A stretch of DNA of 64,000 nucleotides, from positions 1,408,001 to 1,472,000 of the forward strand of contig CAWBKB010000001.1 of assembly GCA_963789265.1 (NCBI GenBank), written 5' to 3'. This document shows, piece after piece, positions 54,081 through 64,000 of this stretch; the first letter of the stretch is position 1; each line of letters begins with the position of its first letter. This stretch comes from an uncultured delta proteobacterium. Its GTDB lineage: Bacteria > Desulfobacterota > Desulfomonilia > Desulfomonilales > Desulfomonilaceae. The notes under the pieces are model-generated. The model ran no database searches. It saw only the letters and a program-made list of their open reading frames with translations, and had not been told where the DNA came from. Position numbers and translations under genes: made by a program.

Positions 54081-57000
54081 ATGCAAGACCGGGACAAAAC
54101 CCAAGAGCAGCTCATCGATGAACTAAGAGCGATGCGCCAAAGGCTTTCCGCAATGGAGGCCACAGAAGCCCGGCTCCTCGGAACGGAAAAGGCACTGCGA
54201 GAGAGTGAGGAGCGGTTTCGACTTCTGTATGAGAACGCTCCTCTGGGTTATCAATCCTTGGACGAGAACGGCCATTTTCTTGAAGTGAACCAAGCATGGC
54301 TCGACACCCTGGGATATGACCGCGAGGAGGTCATCGGAAGGTGGTTCGGCGACTTTCTGGCTCCAGGTTATCAGGACCACTTCAAGATCAACTTCCCCAA
54401 ATTCAAAGCCGCGGGTGAGATTCACTGGGTCGAGTTTGAGATGCTCAGGAAAGACGGTTCCCAAGTCTCTGTTGCCTTTGATGGGCAGATAGGACGCGAC
54501 GAACAGGGACGTTTCAGACAAACTCACTGCATATTACATGACATTTCAGAGATCAAGCGATCAGTAGAAGCCTTAAAGGCGTCCGAATCGCGTTACAGAA
54601 GGCTCTTTGAAAATGCACAAGACGGAATTCTGATCCTCGATTTAGACACCGGTCAGATCCTGGATGTGAACCCTCATCTGATAAACATGTTGGGCTATTC
54701 TCACGAAGAGTTCCTGGACACGTTTCTTTGGGAGGTTAGTCCATTCAAGGACACCGCTCTGAACAAGGAGGCTTTTGCAAGACTGCGGCAAGGAGCCTGT
54801 GTCCGTTACGAAGACTTGCCCCTTGAAACTAGCGACGGGCAAACTATCGACGTGGAGTTTGTCAGCAACACTTATTCAGTTGATGGAATGACTTTTATCC
54901 AATGCAATATCCGTGACATCACCGAACGCAAACGGGCCGAGGAAGAGCTGCGCCAGCAAAGAGAAGAGTTACAAATTATCCTAGACTCTGTACCTGCTTT
55001 GATTTTCTACAAAGACACCAACAATAACATGGTCAATGCCAACAAAACCTGGCTTCAAACGTTTGGGTATACAGAACATGACGTTATCGGCAAATGCCTG
55101 GCTGAGTTCTTTCCAACGGAACAAGCAGCGGAATTGTTCCGGGACGATCTGGAAGTTATCACAACAGGACATCCCAAGCAGAATATTCTGGAAGTGATAG
55201 AAATTGATGGGCGACCTCGGGCGTTCGTCACGGACAAGATTCCATATCAGAACGCGAACGGGGACATTATAGGTGTCATCGGATTCTCGCAGGACATCAC
55301 CGACCGCAAACTGGCTGAAGAGGCAATTCGCACGAGCGAAGCACAATTGTCCAACGCATTGCAAATGGCTCATCTGGGCCATTGGGAATACGACGTCGCT
55401 AAAGATCTGTTTACCTTCAACGATGACTTCTACAAGATCTTTCGCACAACTGCTGAACAGGTTGGCGGATACACAATGTCGTCAGCCGACTATGCTCGAC
55501 GTTTCGTCCATCCTGACGATATATCTGTAGTCGGTAATGAAATCCGAAAATCCATTGAAGCCACCGATCCCCACTTCAGCCAACAGTTAGAACACCGCGT
55601 CCTCTACGCGGACGGAGAAATCGGCCATATCACTGTCCGAATTTTCCTGGTCAAGGACGACCTCGGACATACGATTAAGACCTATGGAGTGAATCAGGAC
55701 ATCACTGAGCGAAAACGGGTAGAACAAGCCTTGCAAGACAGTGAGCAGATGCTGAAGAGTCTCTTGGCCGCTTCTCCCGTCGGTATACTGTTTACACAAC
55801 ACAGCAAAATCAAGTGGGCAAATGACGCTTGGGTGACAATGTTCGGATTTGAAAATGAAGGAGAATATATAGATCAGCAGACGGAAATACTATATTCCTC
55901 GCAAGAAGAATACCAGCGTGTCCGTTCCATTCTTTATGGCAATCTCAAGCCTGGAAAGGTTTCTGAAACTGATGCAAGGCTGATGAGAAAAGATGGCTTC
56001 GCAATTGATGTCCATATACGGGTCAACTTCTTAGATCCCTCCGACCCTGCGAAAGGAACCATCTCGGCTCTTTCCGACGTATCAGACCGGAAACGATCAG
56101 AGGAAGAACTGCAGAAAAGTGAAGAAAGGTTGGAACTGGCACTCCAGGGAGCAGACTTGGGTTTGTGGGACTGGTATGTCCAGCAGGGGCGAGCTGTCGC
56201 GAATCAACGGTCTGCTGAGATGATCGGGTATTCACTTGACGAAATTGACCAGAGCTTTGGTTTTTGGGAAAGCCTGCTGCATCCCGACGATAAACGCCGC
56301 GCTTTGGAGAAGGTATTCAATCACCTGTCAAGCTTCACAGTCTCTTATGAAGAGGAGTACCGGGTGAGACACAAATCCGGTGCTTGGAAATGGATTCTTG
56401 CACGCGGCAAGATCACGGAACGTGATCAGGACGGAAAACCGTTGAGAATGACCGGGACCTATCTGGACATTACTGACAGGAAGTCATCCGAGATGCGTGT
56501 GGCCGAGGCCAATGAGCTAAGAGAAAAAATTCTTGCAGCGTCGCCTGTTGGCATTGAGGTATTCAAGGCAAACGGGCAATGTGTCCTCGTAAACGATGCG
56601 ATGGGGCGTGCCATCGGTGGAACGAAAGAACAGCTCTTCGCACAGAATTTCCGCCATATGGCTACCTGGGAAGCAGTCGGGCTCTTGGATGATGCCGATC
56701 AGGTTCTTTCCACGGGTGTGGATAAGCAGCGAGAGATCCATGTCGTATCGACCTTAGGAAAGGAGGTTTGGGCAGAAACTCGTTTGACCAGATTCAACTC
56801 TGGAGGTGAGCCTCATCTTCTCTTAGTCGTCAACGATGTTTCAGAGAGCCGGAAGGCCGAAGCGGCATTGCGATTCGAGAGAGAACAGCTTCTCTCTATT
56901 TTTGGGAGCATAAACGAGGTTATCCTCGTGATCGACCCGCGAACCTATGAAATCTTGTATGCGAACAAGTTCACTGAGAATTTATTCGGAACAGATATTA

Positions 57001-59162
57001 TAGGAGGGAATTGTTATGAGAAATTGAACGGCTTCGATAGTCCTTGTGAACATTGTGCCAATGACAGGCTCATGGAATTACAGGGCCAACCATATCAATG
57101 GGAATACCACAATCCAGTGCTGAAGAGAGATTTCCTTGCAACAGACAGAATGATAAGGTGGCCTGACGGGCGGGATGTGAAATTTCAACTTGCCATAGAT
57201 ATCACCGAGGCCAAGCAAGCTGACCAGGCATTGAGGGAAAGCGAGGAAAAATACCGGGCTGTTTTCGATAATGCTGGGATTGCGATCACTGTGGTTGATC
57301 GGGATAGCAGGAAGCTTACGCAGGCGAATCCTGCATTAGTGAAGATGTTGGGTTATAGCGGTGAAGAACTCCGGCAACTTACCCATCTGGACATAACTCA
57401 TCCTGAAGATAGAGAAATCACTAAACAACACGTAGACAGAGTTATGGAAGGGGCGTTGGATTCGTTCGACCTTGAGAAACGGTACATCAAGAAGGACGGG
57501 AGCATCATTTGGGGGCATCTTTCGGTATCGACCATTCGGGACGCAGAAGGAAATCCAGGGGCTGCGGTGGGCATGATAGCAGACATCGCCGAGCGCAAAA
57601 AGGCTGAAGATGCCGTCCGTAAGAGCGAGGAAATGTTAGAACTTACGTTACAAGCAGCGGATGTTGGCTTATGGGACTGGAATCTTAAGACCGGCTGGGC
57701 TGTCTGGAACGAACGTGCTACTCGGATGCTTGGACATCTACCCGGCGAGGTTCAGCCCAACCTTCGTGCATGGAAAAGCCTTGTCCACCCGGAAGATTGG
57801 CCCCACGTTTCTGAAGTTCTTAACAGCCATCTCGCGGGACGCCTTCCTCTTCTTGAGGTTGAGTATCGGCTGCGATGCAAGTCCGGGGCGTGGAAATGGA
57901 TCTTGGGCCGGGGCAAGGTTGTGGAATATGACGAGCATGGGAAGCCTTCGCGCATGATCGGGACGAATCTGGACATTACCGAACGCAAGTGTGCGGAGCT
58001 AGAAAAAGCAGATCTCAGAGAGCAGCTTATCCAGTCACAAAAGATGGAATCCATCGGCACTCTTGCTGGAGGTATTGCTCACGATTTCAATAACCTTCTT
58101 ACGGTCATCTTGGGTTTCTCGGAACTCATTATATCAGAGAAAGAAAAAGGGGATCAGGAATACGAAGACCTTACGAAGGTAATCCATGCCGCTAGAACTG
58201 CCGGGGATATGGTTCAACAAATCCTTGCCTTCAGTCGCAAGACGGAGACCAAGCTCCGACCAATCAACCTCAACAAGGAAGTTGGGCAACTAAAGAAGAT
58301 GCTCTCCAGGTTGATACCCAAAACCATTGTAGTTGAAATTAGCCTTGATTCCGGTCTTCCAACAGTGAATGCCGATCCCGCACAAATCGAGCAAATTCTG
58401 ATGAATCTGACGGTGAATTCCAGAGACTCAATGCCGAATGGCGGGCGGCTGCTCATCAAAACCCAAACAGTCATGCTGGACGAGAAGTATTGCCGCCTCC
58501 ATCTTGAAGCCTCCCAAGGACGGCATGCTCTTCTCGTTGTCACGGATACGGGTGTCGGCATTGATAGAACCACGATGGACCGTATATTCGAGCCGTTTTA
58601 TACGACCAAGAAACCGGGTCAGGGAACTGGCTTGGGGCTCGCAATGGTTTACGGGATAGTGAAAAGCCACGGTGGGCACATCATCTGTGAGAGTGAACTT
58701 GGAAGCGGGACCACTTTCAAGATATATCTTCCGGCGCACCAAGCTGAAGGAGAAGCAGACGTAACGGTTTCCAGTCAGTTTTCGGCATTAGGTGCAGGAA
58801 CAATCCTTTTGGTGGATGACGAGGAATTTGTACGAGCACTTGGACAAAGGATCTTAGAAAAGGCTGGTTACACTGTTATTACGGCGACAAATGGTCAAGA
58901 AGCTGTTGAGCTTTACAAGGATAAAGGGAACCATATTTCGCTGGTAATCCTTGACCTCATCATGCCGGTGATGGACGGCAATCAATGCATTACGGAAATC
59001 CTAAGGCTTGATCCGAGAGCAAGAGTGTTGATAGCGAGCGGATATTCTCCTGACGGAATCGTAAGAGAAACACTGGAAGGCGGAGCCAAAGGATTTGTTA
59101 GAAAGCCCTATAACGTGAAGCAACTCTTAAAAACTGTCCGGGATGCGTTGAAAGAGAAGTAA
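54081..59162 (+). CDS. Large multi-PAS hybrid sensor histidine kinase/response regulator (1693 aa)
   Basis: About ten PAS/PAC repeats ending in DIT/DIS; GGIAHDFNN, PFYTTK, GTGLGL; receiver LDLIMPVMDG. Confidence 0.95.
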   Translation: MQDRDKTQEQLIDELRAMRQRLSAMEATEARLLGTEKALRESEERFRLLYENAPLGYQSLDENGHFLEVNQAWLDTLGYDREEVIGRWFGDFLAPGYQDHFKINFPKFKAAGEIHWVEFEMLRKDGSQVSVAFDGQIGRDEQGRFRQTHCILHDISEIKRSVEALKASESRYRRLFENAQDGILILDLDTGQILDVNPHLINMLGYSHEEFLDTFLWEVSPFKDTALNKEAFARLRQGACVRYEDLPLETSDGQTIDVEFVSNTYSVDGMTFIQCNIRDITERKRAEEELRQQREELQIILDSVPALIFYKDTNNNMVNANKTWLQTFGYTEHDVIGKCLAEFFPTEQAAELFRDDLEVITTGHPKQNILEVIEIDGRPRAFVTDKIPYQNANGDIIGVIGFSQDITDRKLAEEAIRTSEAQLSNALQMAHLGHWEYDVAKDLFTFNDDFYKIFRTTAEQVGGYTMSSADYARRFVHPDDISVVGNEIRKSIEATDPHFSQQLEHRVLYADGEIGHITVRIFLVKDDLGHTIKTYGVNQDITERKRVEQALQDSEQMLKSLLAASPVGILFTQHSKIKWANDAWVTMFGFENEGEYIDQQTEILYSSQEEYQRVRSILYGNLKPGKVSETDARLMRKDGFAIDVHIRVNFLDPSDPAKGTISALSDVSDRKRSEEELQKSEERLELALQGADLGLWDWYVQQGRAVANQRSAEMIGYSLDEIDQSFGFWESLLHPDDKRRALEKVFNHLSSFTVSYEEEYRVRHKSGAWKWILARGKITERDQDGKPLRMTGTYLDITDRKSSEMRVAEANELREKILAASPVGIEVFKANGQCVLVNDAMGRAIGGTKEQLFAQNFRHMATWEAVGLLDDADQVLSTGVDKQREIHVVSTLGKEVWAETRLTRFNSGGEPHLLLVVNDVSESRKAEAALRFEREQLLSIFGSINEVILVIDPRTYEILYANKFTENLFGTDIIGGNCYEKLNGFDSPCEHCANDRLMELQGQPYQWEYHNPVLKRDFLATDRMIRWPDGRDVKFQLAIDITEAKQADQALRESEEKYRAVFDNAGIAITVVDRDSRKLTQANPALVKMLGYSGEELRQLTHLDITHPEDREITKQHVDRVMEGALDSFDLEKRYIKKDGSIIWGHLSVSTIRDAEGNPGAAVGMIADIAERKKAEDAVRKSEEMLELTLQAADVGLWDWNLKTGWAVWNERATRMLGHLPGEVQPNLRAWKSLVHPEDWPHVSEVLNSHLAGRLPLLEVEYRLRCKSGAWKWILGRGKVVEYDEHGKPSRMIGTNLDITERKCAELEKADLREQLIQSQKMESIGTLAGGIAHDFNNLLTVILGFSELIISEKEKGDQEYEDLTKVIHAARTAGDMVQQILAFSRKTETKLRPINLNKEVGQLKKMLSRLIPKTIVVEISLDSGLPTVNADPAQIEQILMNLTVNSRDSMPNGGRLLIKTQTVMLDEKYCRLHLEASQGRHALLVVTDTGVGIDRTTMDRIFEPFYTTKKPGQGTGLGLAMVYGIVKSHGGHIICESELGSGTTFKIYLPAHQAEGEADVTVSSQFSALGAGTILLVDDEEFVRALGQRILEKAGYTVITATNGQEAVELYKDKGNHISLVILDLIMPVMDGNQCITEILRLDPRARVLIASGYSPDGIVRETLEGGAKGFVRKPYNVKQLLKTVRDALKEK

Positions 59163-59677
59163 CTACCGGCCCAGGAAGAAGTGCAGAGCAACAAAAGAAA
59201 GAAATGGTCTACGATTAGGACGTACGCCCGTTCCAAGGACTCGTCCGAACCGATTAACGGAATACAGTGTGCTTTATATCTCGAATGCCCGGCGCAATCA
59301 TGAGCCAAGGGTCGCCATTGCCAGGCATAATTAAGCCCTCCAAGAGGGATTACCGATGTCCTCATGCTGCGTTCATCCAAGAGTGAATCGGGTTTGGCTC
59401 TGCGAGGGGCCTGAGGGCTGGCAATCAAAATCGCAAAAGAATGTGACTGCTCACGAGAAAGATCCCAGGCTTGTGAACCGAATTTGTGTCTGACGTGCTG
59501 CGAAAAGCCTCTGAGACTCAAAGGCTGACCCTTCTCTACGTTTCAGAGAGGCTGAATGAGATCTTGTGAGGCGAATTTGCATCTGAGAAAGCCAAGAGAA
59601 TCTGCTCTCCAAAGTGTTGTACTGGAATAACCTGCGGCTAAGAGCATCCAGATGGGTGCGAGTGAGGAACATCGTTG

Positions 59678-60375
59678 TTATCTCCCGAATCGAACCCTCA
59701 GCCAAGTGAACCGCTTCTGTGTCTTGTCGTTCTTCACGGCAATAGCCAAAGCTTTTTTACTGCCCACGACGATCGCCAGTCTCTTTCCCCTCGTGATCGC
59801 AGTGTACAAGAGGTTTCTTTGCAGCAGGATGTAGTGCTGGGTCAGGAGAGGAATCACCACGCAAGGGTATTCGGAGCCCTGCGCCTTGTGAACCGAGACA
59901 GCATAAGCCAGGACCAACTCGTCCAGGTCTGAGTAATCATAGACCACGGATCGCCCATCGAACGTGATCGTCAGCTCCTGCATTTCAGTCTCAATCCGAA
60001 TGATTCGCCCAATGTCCCCGTTGAAGACCTCCTTGTCGTAGTTGTTCCTGATCTGCATCACCTTGTCATCGAACCGGAAGTTCCTGCCGCCCCTCGTTAC
60101 CCCGTCCTCTCTCGGATTGAGAGCCTTCTGAAGCTCGACATTGAGGTTGGTTGTTCCAACCAAGCCCCGATTCATCGGAGTCAGGATATGAACCTCGTCA
60201 ATCGGATCGAATCCGAACGCGTTTCTGATTCTACTGCCGACGAAATCCAAAATTATTCGGAGCGCTACTTCCGGCTCCGTCTTCTCGATGAAATAGAAAT
60301 CGTTCCTTCCCTCGGCATTGGGCTGAAGTCGAGGCATCAAGCCGCTGTTGATGCGACGAGCATTCACGATGATGT
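59678..60375 (-). pseudogene. recD2: C-terminal fragment of RecD2-like ATP-dependent helicase
   Basis: KVMQIRNNYDKEVFNGDIG, AYAVSVHKAQGSEY, RNLLYTAITR; the N-terminal part including Walker A is absent. Confidence 0.85.
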
Positions 60376-60910
60376 CGGGGTCGCGGCCCCGGCATGCTAC
60401 CGCACGGACGGGGAAATCGGGCTATAGGGGGGTGAGTGGCGGGGCATCACACCGAACTGTTTCAACGGGTGGGGAACAATACCCCAACGGTCTCACTATC
60501 CATGAATCACGAAAATCCCCTGGTTTTGAACAAAGGTTCCGTCAATTCGGTTTGAATCTGATGCGATACTGTTTCTCGTTTCGAGGGACGATCTCAACAG
60601 GCCCGAGAGTCCATCTCCTTCCCGTAGAGCATCTAACGACATGCCTGTCCGCCGTTATCCAAATTCCTACTCGGTTAATAAAGTTTTTGGCACGACAATT
60701 GCTAGATGCCGCGTTCACGCGTGACACTCTGGCGGAGGGTCAACTCCGCCGAATTGGACGCTTAAGCCAAGACGAGGTGGGTCCATTTGGATTACATTAA
60801 GGAACGGTACACCTCAGGCTCCATCAAATAGTTCTCGAAAAGAGCCTTTTTGAAGTATCGACGTTCGACCAGAGTAAGAGACAAACACCTTCTCTCTGGG
60901 AGAGAAATCC

Positions 60911-61159
60911 ATGAGCAAACGTCACCTTGTGAAGATGCCGATGTTTTCGACAAGGGATCTTCCGGCTATAGTCCGCAAGTGGTACAAGAACTCAGGCGAG
61001 TGGGTCTCTCTCGGCGATCAACTGTGCGTTGTTGAAACGCGAAAGGCCGCTTACGACGTGGTCTCCGACGGCGAGGGCTTCTTAACCCAAATCGTTCCGG
61101 TGGGGGCTGTTGTGCGGGTGGGATACACTTTAGCCGAGTTGAGTTCACAAATGGAGTAA
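60911..61159 (+). CDS. Stand-alone lipoyl/biotinyl carrier-like domain protein
   Basis: VRKWYKNSGEWVSLGDQLCVVETRKAAYDV resembles the lipoyl ETxK motif. Confidence 0.65.
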   Translation: MSKRHLVKMPMFSTRDLPAIVRKWYKNSGEWVSLGDQLCVVETRKAAYDVVSDGEGFLTQIVPVGAVVRVGYTLAELSSQME

Positions 61160-61791
61160 ATCTCATGCTCGCCGGTTGCCAGGTGGGTGCGGGTCAGTTG
61201 ACGAAACTGATCATTTACCTTGATGATGATTCAAGGGATTCCGTAGCAATATTCTTTCCCCACAAAGATCAGATTGTCCGGGGGCTTGAAACTGCCGCCC
61301 AAGCCAGATTCAAGAACAAATGGGACTCAAGTAAGGGGAGGGAAAGAGAACGCGCAAATTGTCTCAGGCTCGTCTCCGATGGCAACCGCCGTCCTGGATC
61401 GGATTAGAGAGAGATCGTGTCTTTACCAGGAATGAGCGAAGGATTCTCGGCAGAGAAGAAGATACCCATTCTGCTCATCCTCCCGGCAGATATTCCCCAA
61501 AAAAGATCCCCATGAGTTTTGTCCGTTTTCTTTCGCAAGGCTTATTCTGCGTCTCTATTTGCGCTGACTCCACAATCCCTTTCGGAATTTATTCCCGAAC
61601 ACCCTGGTCATTTTTTTGTGGCCCTGAAAGTCTTTGCATAGACTGCGCTGCGGCTGCTTAAGGTTGATGGGGTTGGCGACAAGAGCCTTCCACCAATTCG
61701 GAGGGCATTCCTTACAAAAATGATAATTGACATTCTTCATGTTCCAGAGCAAACTTATCGACAACGATGCCATTTTAGGGAGGGAGTTGGA

Positions 61792-61998
61792 ATGAGCGGT
61801 AAAAATTATTGGGAGGCAAAGAACTGTCCCCCAGAAACCAAAGCCAAGTGTCCGGCATATCCAGACCACGGGCGAGACTGTTGGCTAGTAGCAGGAACCT
61901 TTTGCCGGGGAAAGCAACAAGGGACTCCGATGGAAAAGAGGGAGTTCTGCTTGTTTGATTGTGGGTTTCCAGAAGCAGTCGCAAGAGGTGAAGAATGA
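61792..61998 (+). CDS. Small Cys-rich two-CW-domain-like protein
   Basis: NYWEAKNC...CPAYP..GRDCWLVAGTFC; RBS ggaggg. Confidence 0.7.
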   Translation: MSGKNYWEAKNCPPETKAKCPAYPDHGRDCWLVAGTFCRGKQQGTPMEKREFCLFDCGFPEAVARGEE

Positions 61999-62345
61999 GC
62001 CGGATGCGTCAAACGGCTCCCGACAATAGAGATAGAGTTCAAGGAATAGCGCTCTATAAGGGAGGCGATTCTGCCCAGGACAGCCATCACGGAACCCTCA
62101 AGTTCAGGCAACCGGCAACGGTGAGCGCAAACGTGACTCAGTAACCACCCTGAGCTGGGACACCCTAAACGGTGCATTGCCTCTCTGAGGTATCCCCGAC
62201 AGCCTTGTGAAAAAGAAGGTGTCTCCGCGAGCCTGAACCTCCCGAAAGGGAGTCGTGAGAGGTAGCGTCTCCGGCGAGAGTCGGCGGGGTTGTCGGGAGA
62301 TGCCAAATCCCTCGGCCCATTTGGCGTGAATTATGTGGAACATTC
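61997..62345 (+). ncRNA. Large structured RNA, candidate circularly permuted group II intron-derived ribozyme
   Basis: GAGCCG..CGGCTC D5-like hairpin first. Then GNRA hairpins (GCAA, GAAA, GAGA), a long stem 62185-62204/62289-62315, and pseudoknot pairs gttcaggc/gcctgaac and gggacacc/ggtgtctc. Confidence 0.6.
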
Positions 62346-62561
62346 AATGTGTTGTAGTCTTCTCTGCCGCTGACCGACGATGCAATCTAACCTCGTCGTC
62401 GGATTCTTTATAGCTTCTGCCCGCCGGTCGTATACCTGAAGACCAGGGTCGCAAAATGTTGATGTCCGTCCGAGCGTTTTCAACATAGGCAGGGCGCGAC
62501 GGCATTTGCACAAGCACCAATCCGTTCTGACGCGAAACGAGCCGTGGATTGCATTCGCGAA

Positions 62562-62870
62562 TCAGGCTTGTGGACTCGCTCCTTCCACAAACATAAGTCG
62601 CCTTTCCAGGGCTGCGTCGCGAAACTTCAGCGCTTCCGCGTATTCGGGAGACTCGTACCACTTGCGAATTTGCTCCATTGAGGAAAATTCTACGATAACG
62701 ACTCGGCGTGGGATTGGCTCGCCCTCGACTACTATAGCCTCTGCTGCTCGCGCAAGATAACGGCCACCGTAGGTTGCAATGGAAGCCGCTGCAAGCTGAC
62801 GATATTGGTTTGCAGCATCCTCGTTGATGATTTCGACCTCGGAGATAACGAAAGCACTCATGTGAGCCAC
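62562..62870 (-). CDS. DUF1330 domain protein
   Basis: YGGRYLAR, VVEG, VIVEFSS, WYESPEY. Confidence 0.9.
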   Translation of the reverse strand: MAHMSAFVISEVEIINEDAANQYRQLAAASIATYGGRYLARAAEAIVVEGEPIPRRVVIVEFSSMEQIRKWYESPEYAEALKFRDAALERRLMFVEGASPQA

Positions 62871-63098
62871 TCCTTAGAGGAAATGCAGGGCGTCAGTCCG
62901 GGAGCACACTGAGTAATCAGGCGGTCATGACGCCCAATGTTGAACTTCAACGGCTTCCGCAAGCCAGAGTGACACCGGAAAGCTCCATTTCTGGGCATTC
63001 CGGCTCATACAATGTAGGGCAGTTTACTTGCAGGAAACTCCCCGTTACCGATAGGAACAAGGCTCGTTGTAAATTGTTTAGCGTCGCATGGCACGCGT

Positions 63099-63542
63099 CT
63101 ACCATTTGCGGTACGACAGGAACTTTCCGTTGTAAGTGACGACAACCCGGTCGCCCTTTGGATCTGTCTTTTTCTGAATATCGATCTCGAAATCAATGGC
63201 ACTCATGATGCCGTCACCGAACATCTCGTGAATAATCTCCTTCATGGTCGTCCCATACACCTGGGTGATCTCGTGAAAGCGATACACGAGAGGATCAACG
63301 GGAACCGTAGCGTCAAGAGACCCCTTCATCGGACACTCCTGGAGCACCTCGGCCACTGACTTATCCAGGCCCAGAACCGCTGCTGACTTTTCAGCCAGCT
63401 CCGGGGGCATGCTGTTTTGGCCGAGCAAGGCTGAGGTCACCCAGACCGTATGGCTACCGACCTTTTCGGCAATTTGCTCCCAGGTCAATCCCTTTTCCTT
63501 CTTGGCTGCTCGGATTTTTTCGGTGGCTTCTTTCCTTGTCAT
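63099..63542 (-). CDS. cynS: Cyanate hydratase (cyanase)
   Basis: DPLVYRFHE, IHEMFGDGIMSAIDF, GDRVVVTYNGKFLSY. Confidence 0.95.
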   Translation of the reverse strand: MTRKEATEKIRAAKKEKGLTWEQIAEKVGSHTVWVTSALLGQNSMPPELAEKSAAVLGLDKSVAEVLQECPMKGSLDATVPVDPLVYRFHEITQVYGTTMKEIIHEMFGDGIMSAIDFEIDIQKKTDPKGDRVVVTYNGKFLSYRKW

Positions 63543-64000
63543 GTCGGGTCTCCCGTTTCTTAGGTGTGATGTCAGCCGAAATTATGCGGCTATCTTGCCA
63601 TTTTGAGGTCTTCGGGACGATAACGGAGCGAGGGATGGTACCCGGAAGCCTGAAGAGGTTGCCGTATTTCCTCCCACTAGTCCCGACAGAGGTAAAACCG
63701 CCGTCACTTTGCTGAAAAAGGATCTTATATTGACGTCTAAACATAGCCTACTGCTCAGGCCACGGTCAAACTAATTTTTGCTGAACAGCCTCGATAACGA
63801 GCAAAACAAGATATCGCTCATAAGGCACCGGAGAACGATTCTCCGCGATCATCTGATTCGGGGTATGCTGACGTATTCAAAAATTCCGTCCGCGCGTCTA
63901 CCGCGTTCTGATTGCGCGAAATTGTCAAAATTCGGTGCCTGCAGTCATGACCATCTCACGTGAGATTGCGATTGACTGAGGGGGTGGGACCAGGTAAGCT

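Follow-up and report, generated by a model that had tools for sequence, protein, structure and literature searches.

Here we describe a structured RNA encoded in a 64,000-nucleotide (nt) stretch of the genome of an uncultured delta proteobacterium (contig CAWBKB010000001.1, positions 1,408,001 to 1,472,000 of the forward strand; this whole stretch, in whose numbering positions are given, is called the window below). The RNA lies just downstream of a small cysteine-rich gene and belongs to a structured, strand-specific, non-coding family consisting of two domains joined by a pseudoknot. Judging from sequence comparisons, we rate the family as new, with no recognizable kin in Rfam 15 and a narrow range. 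The locus holds one copy of this lineage-restricted family of RNAs of about 255 nt; our preferred reading, which is tentative, is that the RNA acts as a co-transcribed 3'-end module and may be set free as a stable RNA.

The window's own genome (G000; 6.06 Mb in nine contigs, labeled C below) was searched with BLAST and iterated nhmmer. Matches were found in 12 places, comprising six distinct full-length copies, one identical duplicate on C5, and a remainder of partial copies. The window copy is the one at C1:1470057; the five other full-length copies (C1:1490762, C1:1515351, C1:1522485, C8:118453, and, on the minus strand, C6:396554) are 72-83% identical to it. The duplicate (locus L001, C5:417484-420844) was compared with window positions 60490-63850. 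The two loci share a duplicated stretch of at least 1.7 kb around the RNA, with 100% identity over the 361 nt searched and a single-residue difference (C to R) in the two-CW protein encoded next to the RNA. Given these near-identical flanks and a genome contamination of 6%, the duplicate probably reflects strain heterogeneity or assembly redundancy and not a second locus in its own right. In all, 42 unique full-length copies were collected from Desulfomonilaceae and related metagenomes, and 39 copies less than 95% identical were kept out of 52 full-length matches for the structure test.

The proposed structure comprises 14 helices with 82 base pairs (Table 1), counted over the 39-copy alignment. 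Pairing was found in 91.5% of the cells, as opposed to 36.4-45.0% after the partners had been slid by 1 to 3 columns. Compensatory changes, affecting both sides of a pair, occurred in 37 of the 82 pairs. The number of cells changed on both sides was 191, compared with 71.6 ± 8.0 in shuffles, and none of the 500 shuffles reached 191; the covariation score was 0.241 as opposed to 0.158. Helices 1-4 and 6-8, which form the 5' domain, were 79-96% paired, and helices 9-14, which form the 3' domain, were 87-98% paired. Covariation was heavy in P3, P3a, and P4, where both sides had changed in 9 to 24 of the 39 sequences at the variable pairs; one P4 pair was AU in 13 sequences, CG in 13, and GC in 10. 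Near-invariant sequences were found in the junctions (GGAACC, AAAC, and GAAAAAGAAGG). Counted by fixed columns, GNRA loops were frequent, not universal, capping P3b in 20 of the 39 copies, P11 in 19, P10 in 14, and P5 in 10.

An earlier reading of this DNA (the original prediction) had listed many of these elements as parts of a highly structured orphan RNA in which hairpins carry tetraloops and distant segments pair across each other, a description that holds. The stems tcacg/cgtga and ctcag/ctgag, the tetraloop hairpins, the long helix, and the pair gttcaggc/gcctgaac are present where it had placed them in the sequence of 61200-63200, and comparison with the 38 other copies found P3, P4, P3b, P10, P11, and P6/P7 conserved with covariation. 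Of the two crossing pairs it had proposed, one stood and one did not. The pair gttcaggc/gcctgaac forms an 8-bp inter-domain pseudoknot with 93.2% of its cells paired. Only one side of a pair ever changes (at one position, 19 sequences have AU and 16 have GU), so the pseudoknot is backed by conservation and wobble changes rather than by compensatory ones. The other pair, gggacacc/ggtgtctc, was 72.8% paired and unconserved (19/34, 20/33, and 9/35 at its middle positions); it is at odds with P2, and the region is better explained by P5 (Table 1).

The alignment contained 287 G.U cells as opposed to 107 A.C cells. On the plus strand, positions 61990-62350 folded with -138.9 kcal/mol and a z-score of -3.87, which none of 100 shuffles equaled, whereas the z-score of the minus strand was -0.83. 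This excess of G.U cells and the asymmetry of folding between the strands indicate that the plus strand is the RNA strand. The idea of a sponge for CsrA was also considered and set aside: there are about six GGA motifs in the 255 nt, most of them within helices.

Could the region encode a protein instead, either a 166-amino-acid (aa) minus-strand frame (61806-62306) or a short plus-strand peptide (KGGDSAQD...)? Stop-free frames spanning the whole core were found on the minus strand in 17 of the 39 copies (plus strand, 7 of 39), open stretches of at least 70 aa were found there in 22 of 39 (plus strand, 9 of 39), and similar peptide strings recur in several copies. These minus-strand open frames count against the non-coding reading; we attribute them to shared ancestry and composition. 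The variation itself is pairwise-compensatory and shows no third-position periodicity, the column entropies by codon position being 0.67, 0.65, and 0.70 over the core. Core lengths modulo 3 are evenly spread (14/14/11), the KGGDSAQD... frame is stopped within 6 codons or fewer in 7 of the 39 copies, and the minus-strand peptides lie in differing frames among copies. Thus, a conserved frame, third-position variation, and insertions or deletions in threes were all missing from the copies compared, and we regard a coding function as very improbable.

The RNA had originally been drawn at 61997-62345. In the alignments, homology among copies begins at AAGGGAGGCGAUUCUGCCCAGGA (62057) and ends at ...GGGGUUGUCGGGAGAUGCCAAA (62311), which places the core inside the predicted extent; by this measure, conservation covers 62057-62311 and a short tail rather than 61997-62345. 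Core length varied from 223 to 277 nt across the 39 copies. The tail of the window copy, AAAUCCCUCGGCCCAU, resembles an AAGUUCC-UCGAUCCAU tail found 3' of the core in many copies. In some relatives, a further conserved sequence of about 190 nt follows the core; in the window, it is absent or degenerate. On the 5' side, the conserved RNA begins 58 nt 3' of the stop codon of the neighboring gene (TGA, 61996-61998). The leader in between contains two local stems, GAGCCG/CGGCTC (61997-62002/62014-62019), which overlaps that stop codon, and ATAGAG/CTCTAT (62032-62037/62052-62057).

No alignment and no shared sequence or structure fit for a common promoter was found among the upstream sequences of the 39 copies, and the 48 nt upstream of the core folded no better than shuffles (mean z-score, -0.09). 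A stable hairpin abuts the core in 11 of the 39 copies. A universal 5' hairpin ("P0") and a CCCGAYGA leader motif were considered and dropped, as only a subset of copies has them. Also dropped was the palindrome CTGCAACNGTTGCAG as a genome-wide repetitive extragenic palindrome (REP), of whose 85 loose matches only 3 were at RNA copies and the others were chance-like. A scan of 61400-62700 returned no promoter-like site and, on the plus strand, no terminator-like site. By eye only, a long-loop hairpin followed by AUUCUUUAU was noticed near 62378-62412.

Table 1. Features of the RNA locus and helices of the proposed structure (window positions)
Feature	Position	Strand	Basis or remark
Two-CW domain gene, 68 aa	61792-61998	+	Open reading frame list; NCBIfam NF045718 two_CW_domain
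Two local hairpins, copy-specific leader	61997-62057	+	In sequence; no alignment among upstream regions of 39 copies
Conserved core, ~255 nt, two domains	62057-62311	+	nhmmer and MAFFT on copies from G000 and relatives
5' domain (P1, P2, P3, P3a, P3b, P4, P5), closed by P1	62060-62185	+	39-copy test
P1	62060-62069/62176-62185	+	
P2	62074-62078/62155-62159	+	
P3 (tcacg/cgtga)	62087-62091/62132-62136	+	Covarying
P3a	62097-62100/62122-62125	+	Covarying
Pseudoknot 5' strand GUUCAGGC, in P3a/P3b junction	62102-62109	+	Pairs with 62231-62238
P3b (GCAA loop)	62112-62114/62119-62121	+	Conserved with covariation
P4 (ctcag/ctgag), conserved loop UAACCACC	62137-62141/62150-62154	+	Covarying
P5	62161-62164/62171-62174	+	90.9% paired
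3' domain (P6-P11), closed by P6/P7	62189-62304	+	39-copy test
P6	62189-62194/62299-62304	+	Part of long helix; conserved with covariation
P7	62195-62206/62286-62297	+	Part of long helix; conserved with covariation
A-rich junction GAAAAAGAAGG	62209-62219	+	
P8	62217-62220/62267-62270	+	
P9	62223-62229/62254-62261	+	
Pseudoknot 3' strand GCCUGAAC, inside P9 loop	62231-62238	+	Pairs with 62102-62109
P10 (GAAA loop)	62239-62243/62248-62252	+	Conserved with covariation
P11 (GAGA loop)	62271-62275/62280-62284	+	Conserved with covariation
Short 3' tail AAAUCCCUCGGCCCAU	62312-62331	+	Downstream sequences of 39 copies side by side

The same leader hairpins had led the original prediction to a circularly permuted (CP) or fragmentary group II ribozyme, with hairpins like domains 5 and 6 (D5/D6) ahead of a D1-like body. 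Several features of the window copy fit this view, namely an AGC-starting hairpin directly past the stop codon, GNRA-capped hairpins, a long-range crossing pair, and the absence of a nearby reverse transcriptase (RT) gene. The last point was borne out, the nearest RVT_1 match being about 298 kb off on the same contig. However, the D5/D6-like hairpins are not common to the 38 other aligned copies, and the group II claim fails because these parts lie outside the conserved RNA. In group II introns, which measure several hundred nt, D5 is a bulged hairpin of about 34 nt with a GNRA loop and, at its base, an AGC triad. The hairpin at 61997-62019 is the sole one that starts with AGC and has no counterpart in the other aligned copies, and nowhere in the aligned core is there a conserved AGC triad with a bulged helix. 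A scan against Rfam 15 with permissive filters (E ≤ 1) found no match in 58000-64000, and only one chance-level match (Prion_pknot, E = 0.75) in 15 homologous loci (46 kb). Neither RF00029 (D5/D6) nor clan CL00102 (group-II-D1D4) matched the window or these 15 loci. The group II models do work in this genome, since they match real introns there: a control cmscan of two intron loci in G000 gave 54.5 and 33.6 bits for RF00029 and 124.1 bits for RF02005 (locus L146).

In the description by Roth et al. 2021 (PMC8637638), the mean length of CP group II ("T-large") RNAs is about 900 nt, and these RNAs retain D6 and a conserved D5 with a bulge and an AGC triad at its base. They are like the RNA described here in being orphans with many helices, GNRA loops, long-range pseudoknots, and no adjoining intron-encoded protein; unlike them, the conserved RNA here measures about 255 nt, and its D5/D6-like hairpins belong to one copy only. 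None of the findings that the original prediction had named as fatal to it (a lack of covariation, a match to another RNA class or the end of an insertion sequence [IS], or D5/D6 downstream) literally applies; the group II claim fails anyway. As far as sequence analysis goes, a CP group II identity is refuted, and we give it next to no chance. Genuine group II introns with RT open reading frames (ORFs) of 446-460 aa do occur in G000, at C1:1766600-1769800 (locus L145), C8:71300-74400 (L146), and C3:299188-299820, the C1 and C3 copies having identical RT scores; the RVT_1 genes of the genome are at C1:1768060, C3:299188, and C8:72572.

We evaluated how widespread the RNA is. Among 41 relatives searched, matches were found in six genomes, G000 included (5 of 24 in family f1 as opposed to 0 of 16 in family f2), and the RNA was present in 3 of 6 other searched congeners of G000. 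A covariance model of the 3' domain alone (R1) served for the surveys of the class and the phylum, which therefore follow the 3' domain only. Across 122 genomes of the class, 13 had matches, all in f1 (12 of 69 f1 genomes as opposed to 0 of 52 in f2), with up to 14 matches in one genome (G064). In an even sample of the phylum, 1 of 151 genomes matched, namely G000. A degenerate pattern was scanned against the genomes of 185,579 species; because it reaches close relatives only, the restriction means that the RNA was not found elsewhere in what was searched. The scan returned 21 stretches, of which 17 were confirmed by nhmmer. These were annotated as Desulfomonilaceae, Desulfomonile tiedjei, "uncultured delta proteobacterium," and one "Syntrophobacteraceae" metagenome-assembled genome, and the four unconfirmed stretches were chance matches inside coding DNA of other phyla. 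The same pattern gave 28 stretches in metagenomes, 26 of them confirmed, and no matches in viral contigs. A literature search that paired Desulfomonile with structured-RNA terms found no paper on this RNA among the matches listed, with subscription-only literature and supplements outside its scope.

Remnants of both kinds, 3'-only and 5'-only, were present. Copies consisting of the 3' domain only scored with R1 at C8:114973-115094 (E = 1.7e-7) and C7:320832-320940 (E = 9.5e-4) in G000, and such copies lie 10-22 nt past the stop codons of unrelated genes, MaoC (G000, C1:1521227) and DUF1980 (locus L143, position 7543). At C8:84000-84360 (minus strand), a 5'-domain-only copy ends where a 163-aa ORF begins, with the ATG of the ORF at the place of the 3' strand of P1; by its sequence, the ORF is like a GNAT acetyltransferase.

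Neighboring genes were called by a crude longest-ORF proxy, which goes by ORF length only. Among the 37 copies for which both neighbors were called, 19 lay in convergent gaps, 15 in co-directional gaps (9 oriented with the genes and 6 against them), and 3 in divergent gaps. The baseline, gaps of 350-1500 nt in G000 scored by a similar proxy, comprised 18% convergent, 56% co-directional, and 26% divergent gaps. The number of convergent gaps (19 of 37) lies about 5 standard deviations above the baseline expectation, with loci that are partly kin. In many copies, the upstream ORF ends 6-66 nt from the core, and the RNA usually comes right behind a gene of its own orientation. Copies thereby cluster at the 3' ends of genes and are scarce in divergent (promoter) gaps.

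In the window, the gene in question is the small cysteine-rich gene that the original prediction had noted beside the RNA. Its product is a two-CW domain protein (NF045718; E = 1.2e-9, 38.4 bits with a cut-off of 35). Elsewhere, the upstream genes are diverse (two-CW, glyoxalase, RNase_H_2, DUF4388, and DUF1003), and the larger neighborhoods are rich in accessory genes and IS elements with no common theme, permeases and kinases being found there too.

Taken together, a strand-specific non-coding family, old maintained copies, placement at 3' ends, and the lack of a shared upstream motif are the grounds on which we favor read-through transcription and a 3'-end module. The RNA would have no promoter of its own and would be made by read-through from a co-directional gene ending tens of nucleotides upstream, here the two-CW gene, so that it would form the 3' end of that gene's transcription unit. 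The module may then mark where the upstream transcript ends or protect that end, by hindering 3'-to-5' decay, by serving as a non-canonical stop, or in both ways, and the RNA may be released as a stable, protein-binding particle.

Several points weigh against this proposal. We infer co-transcription, the ends of the RNA, and its stability alike. Placement alone is no proof of a 3'-end function, because neutral or selfish repeats, too, are tolerated best in convergent gaps, and the placement counts overstate independence, since many loci are kin. Six of the 15 copies in co-directional gaps were scored opposite to their neighbors, although at least 3 of these 6 were mis-scored by the proxy; the window copy, for one, was scored "-,-" because the proxy mis-scores short genes, the actual upstream gene being the two-CW ORF. 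A terminator-like hairpin with a U tract followed within 200 nt of the RNA in 1 of 37 copies, as opposed to 2.9 expected from shuffles; the GC-rich hairpin and U tract of an intrinsic terminator thus characterize neither 61400-62700 (plus strand) nor the 37 copies. Finally, a simple hairpin is enough to block exonucleases; a pseudoknotted fold of 14 helices with GNRA loops seems too elaborate for this task and hints at a more specific activity.

Such an activity would be expected of a free-standing, trans-acting RNA, either a ribozyme or a subunit or scaffold of a ribonucleoprotein (RNP), encoded by several paralogous genes per genome and lying behind other genes incidentally. The elaborate conserved fold, with its 14 helices, inter-domain pseudoknot, and near-invariant junctions, is in line with this, as are the frequent GNRA loops, a typical trait of ribozymes and RNP RNAs. 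Among bacterial RNAs of similar size, few classes have a well-supported multi-helix pseudoknotted fold, and several of these proved to be ribozymes, riboswitches, or RNP cores. Possible protein partners are encoded upstream of the RNA in its own orientation: an HU-family gene (PF00216) is present at a distance of 270-1250 nt in 11 of the 42 copies, and small "SGM" ORFs resembling helix-turn-helix (HTH) proteins (...SGMxDxxLMxKY...) end 6-143 nt upstream in 9 of 42. A possible sigma-70-like promoter was seen by eye upstream of two copies (L037 and L047), but no conserved promoter or upstream motif at a fixed distance was found across copies. A core RNP would not usually be limited to 12 of 69 searched f1 genomes and 3 of 6 searched congeners, the SGM domain has undergone a massive expansion in G000, where 47 of its 50 ORFs have no RNA nearby and 3 stand beside a copy, and catalysis cannot be read from the sequence. 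We therefore consider a trans-acting RNA rather unlikely, if still a serious competitor of the 3'-end module.

The SGM domain itself spans about 45 aa (...SGMxDxxLMxKYxLSxxGL...) and either stands alone in proteins of 58-64 aa or is N-terminal in larger proteins, including DUF4388 proteins; examples in G000 are C1:1513824-1515308 and C6:396587-396793. Searches of Pfam, NCBIfam, and a protein atlas assigned it to no named family, giving weak HTH-like leads (≤0.89) and a sub-threshold match to DUF433.

A third explanation sees in the RNA the decayed remains of a non-autonomous mobile or repeat element, for example one like miniature inverted-repeat transposable elements (MITEs), an IS-derived guide-RNA scaffold, or a retroelement relic, which would persist chiefly at convergent gene ends, where insertions do little harm. 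The family is indeed multi-copy and patchy, ranging from 0 to 14 matches per genome and absent from 3 of the 6 congeners searched. Its copies form same-orientation clusters over a few kb to 50 kb (for example, five in G000 at C1:1.470-1.523 Mb and three in G064 on C492), truncated 5'-only and 3'-only copies occur, the neighborhoods are rich in IS elements and accessory genes, and there is a second repeat, "ds," marked by a shared palindrome (TCTGCAACGGTTGCAGA), next to cores or 0.5-1.7 kb off. The genome also has six Y1_Tnp matches, none of them adjoining a copy.

The age of the copies argues otherwise. Median pairwise identity among the 42 unique full-length copies was 75%, and the highest values were 95.6% (two metagenome contigs) and then 89.7%, which indicates no recent burst of copies. 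No near-identical copies exist within one genome, the sole identical pair (C1/C5) looking like assembly redundancy. At orthologous loci across species, the RNA has diverged about as much as the neighboring gene: identity stands at 89% for loci L007 and L023 over 840 nt and at 80-83% for L015, L020, and L026 over 700-860 nt. In each diverged copy, the fold has been kept by compensatory changes, a sign that the RNA is under selection. When the flanks of L007 and L009 served as queries, no clear orthologous site without the RNA turned up, and no insertion boundaries emerged; two-CW paralogs in G004 and G006 were at a different locus.

Machinery and marks of transposition were likewise not found. 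The flanking ORFs (within 1.5 kb) of 104 loci were clustered and revealed no recurrent RT, nuclease, transposase, or integrase, nor did a Pfam scan of 4 + 3 larger neighborhoods. There was no RT within 10 kb of any copy, and no clear bias to 5' truncation, and hence no signature of reverse transcription. TnpB (PF07282) was absent from G000, its control being positive in eight genomes, while the search for PF14239 (RRXRR) was uninformative, as its control matched nowhere. Terminal inverted repeats and target-site duplications, judged by eye in the aligned ends, were not seen, so that these hallmarks of MITEs are missing along with near-identical recent copies. On balance, a decayed mobile element appears improbable, though by no means negligible.

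The ds repeat is about 130-190 nt long and starts with the palindrome TCTGCAACGGTTGCAGA, followed by CCCCGAT. It was found at L063:1759-1949 (minus strand), L064:1183-1378, L078:2097-2287, L073:2101-2291, and, in G000, at C8:117392-117517 and C5:408775-408911 (minus strand). It either abuts the 3' end of the core (the "long form") or sits 0.5-1.7 kb off in the same orientation, and the palindrome also precedes some cores. An unrelated repeat of about 200 nt was met at L009 (C6:394800-398100 of G000; minus-strand query positions 569-776), with dozens of 70-95% identical copies in G001, G005, and other congeners; from its sequence, this looks like an abundant MITE-type element of the genus.

Known elements offer partial parallels. 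HEARO/IscB-type and TnpB-type omega RNAs of IS200/IS605 elements are 200-300 nt long, pseudoknotted, multi-copy, often orphaned, and found in IS-rich regions, with at least some copies next to an IscB, IsrB, or TnpB gene. The RNA described here is like them in size, in its pseudoknot, in its many copies, in often being orphaned from any ORF, and in its IS-rich surroundings. Unlike them, it has no Rfam match at E ≤ 1 (HEARO is presumably RF02033), no TnpB in G000, and no recurrent nuclease or transposase in the 104 loci; its copies are old (median identity, 75%), and no IS200/605-type ends were recognized.

The REP/BIME, ERIC, and Correia repeats are multi-copy and lineage-specific, lie after genes and often in convergent gaps, are co-transcribed, and can stabilize the upstream mRNA; they are simple palindromes of 30-150 nt with inverted-repeat symmetry, many of them present in both orientations. 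The RNA shares their multiplicity, lineage specificity, and placement after genes and often in convergent gaps. It differs in having a 255-nt asymmetric two-domain fold with a pseudoknot, GNRA loops, and a strand preference (287 G.U as opposed to 107 A.C cells).

Integron attC sites are imperfect palindromes (R''-L''...L'-R') of about 57-141 nt that accompany intI-linked cassette arrays, act as folded single-stranded DNA, and end in R''(RYYYAAC)...R'(GTTRRRY). Like them, the RNA follows small accessory genes (glyoxalase/VOC, GNAT, lipocalin, and hypothetical genes) in the same orientation, sometimes in loose arrays. Compared with this consensus, neither the size nor the motif order fits: GTTCAGGC precedes GCCTGAAC, the unit is far larger and RNA-like, spacing is 1-25 kb, the next gene is usually convergent, and neighboring genes lie on both strands. 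Large "ornate" bacterial non-coding RNAs such as OLE, raiA, ROOL, and GOLLD also have complex conserved pseudoknotted folds with tetraloops, were found comparatively, and lack an evident protein partner. The present RNA matches no Rfam family, is smaller, has multiple diverged copies in a genome, and in the searches turned up in a single bacterial family.

The RNA is unusual in that a genome holds several copies which are old, are each conserved, and follow directly on genes unrelated to one another. A role in defining or protecting the 3' ends of transcripts would make it a new type of 3'-end element, and catalysis or protein binding would make it a new RNA class. One bolder, and in our estimate doubtful, proposal joins the two: a new compact tertiary-structured RNA class, a ribozyme or RNP core, that seals or processes the 3' ends of accessory-gene transcripts, with a self-sufficient 3' domain onto which the 5' domain docks through the 8-bp pseudoknot, possibly together with SGM proteins or HU. 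If true, this would be an RNA-encoded, terminator-independent way to define mRNA 3' ends. The family lends itself to direct tests, since covariation already yields a secondary structure in detail and well-defined limits of the domains.

Three genes flank the RNA. A stand-alone 82-aa biotin/lipoyl-domain ORF (PF00364) lies at 60911-61159 (plus strand). Downstream, genes for a DUF1330 protein (62562-62870) and cyanate hydratase (63099-63542; PF02560 with PF21291) are on the minus strand, convergent toward the RNA. Of the domains of a RecD-like helicase, a 229-aa ORF at 59678-60367 (minus strand) has just SH3_13 and UvrD_C_2; its sequence suggests the C-terminal part of such a protein, lacking the ATPase core. 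Farther upstream, a 1693-aa ORF (54081-59162, plus strand) is by sequence like a multi-PAS hybrid histidine kinase, and PAS sensor kinases recur downstream of other copies of the RNA too.

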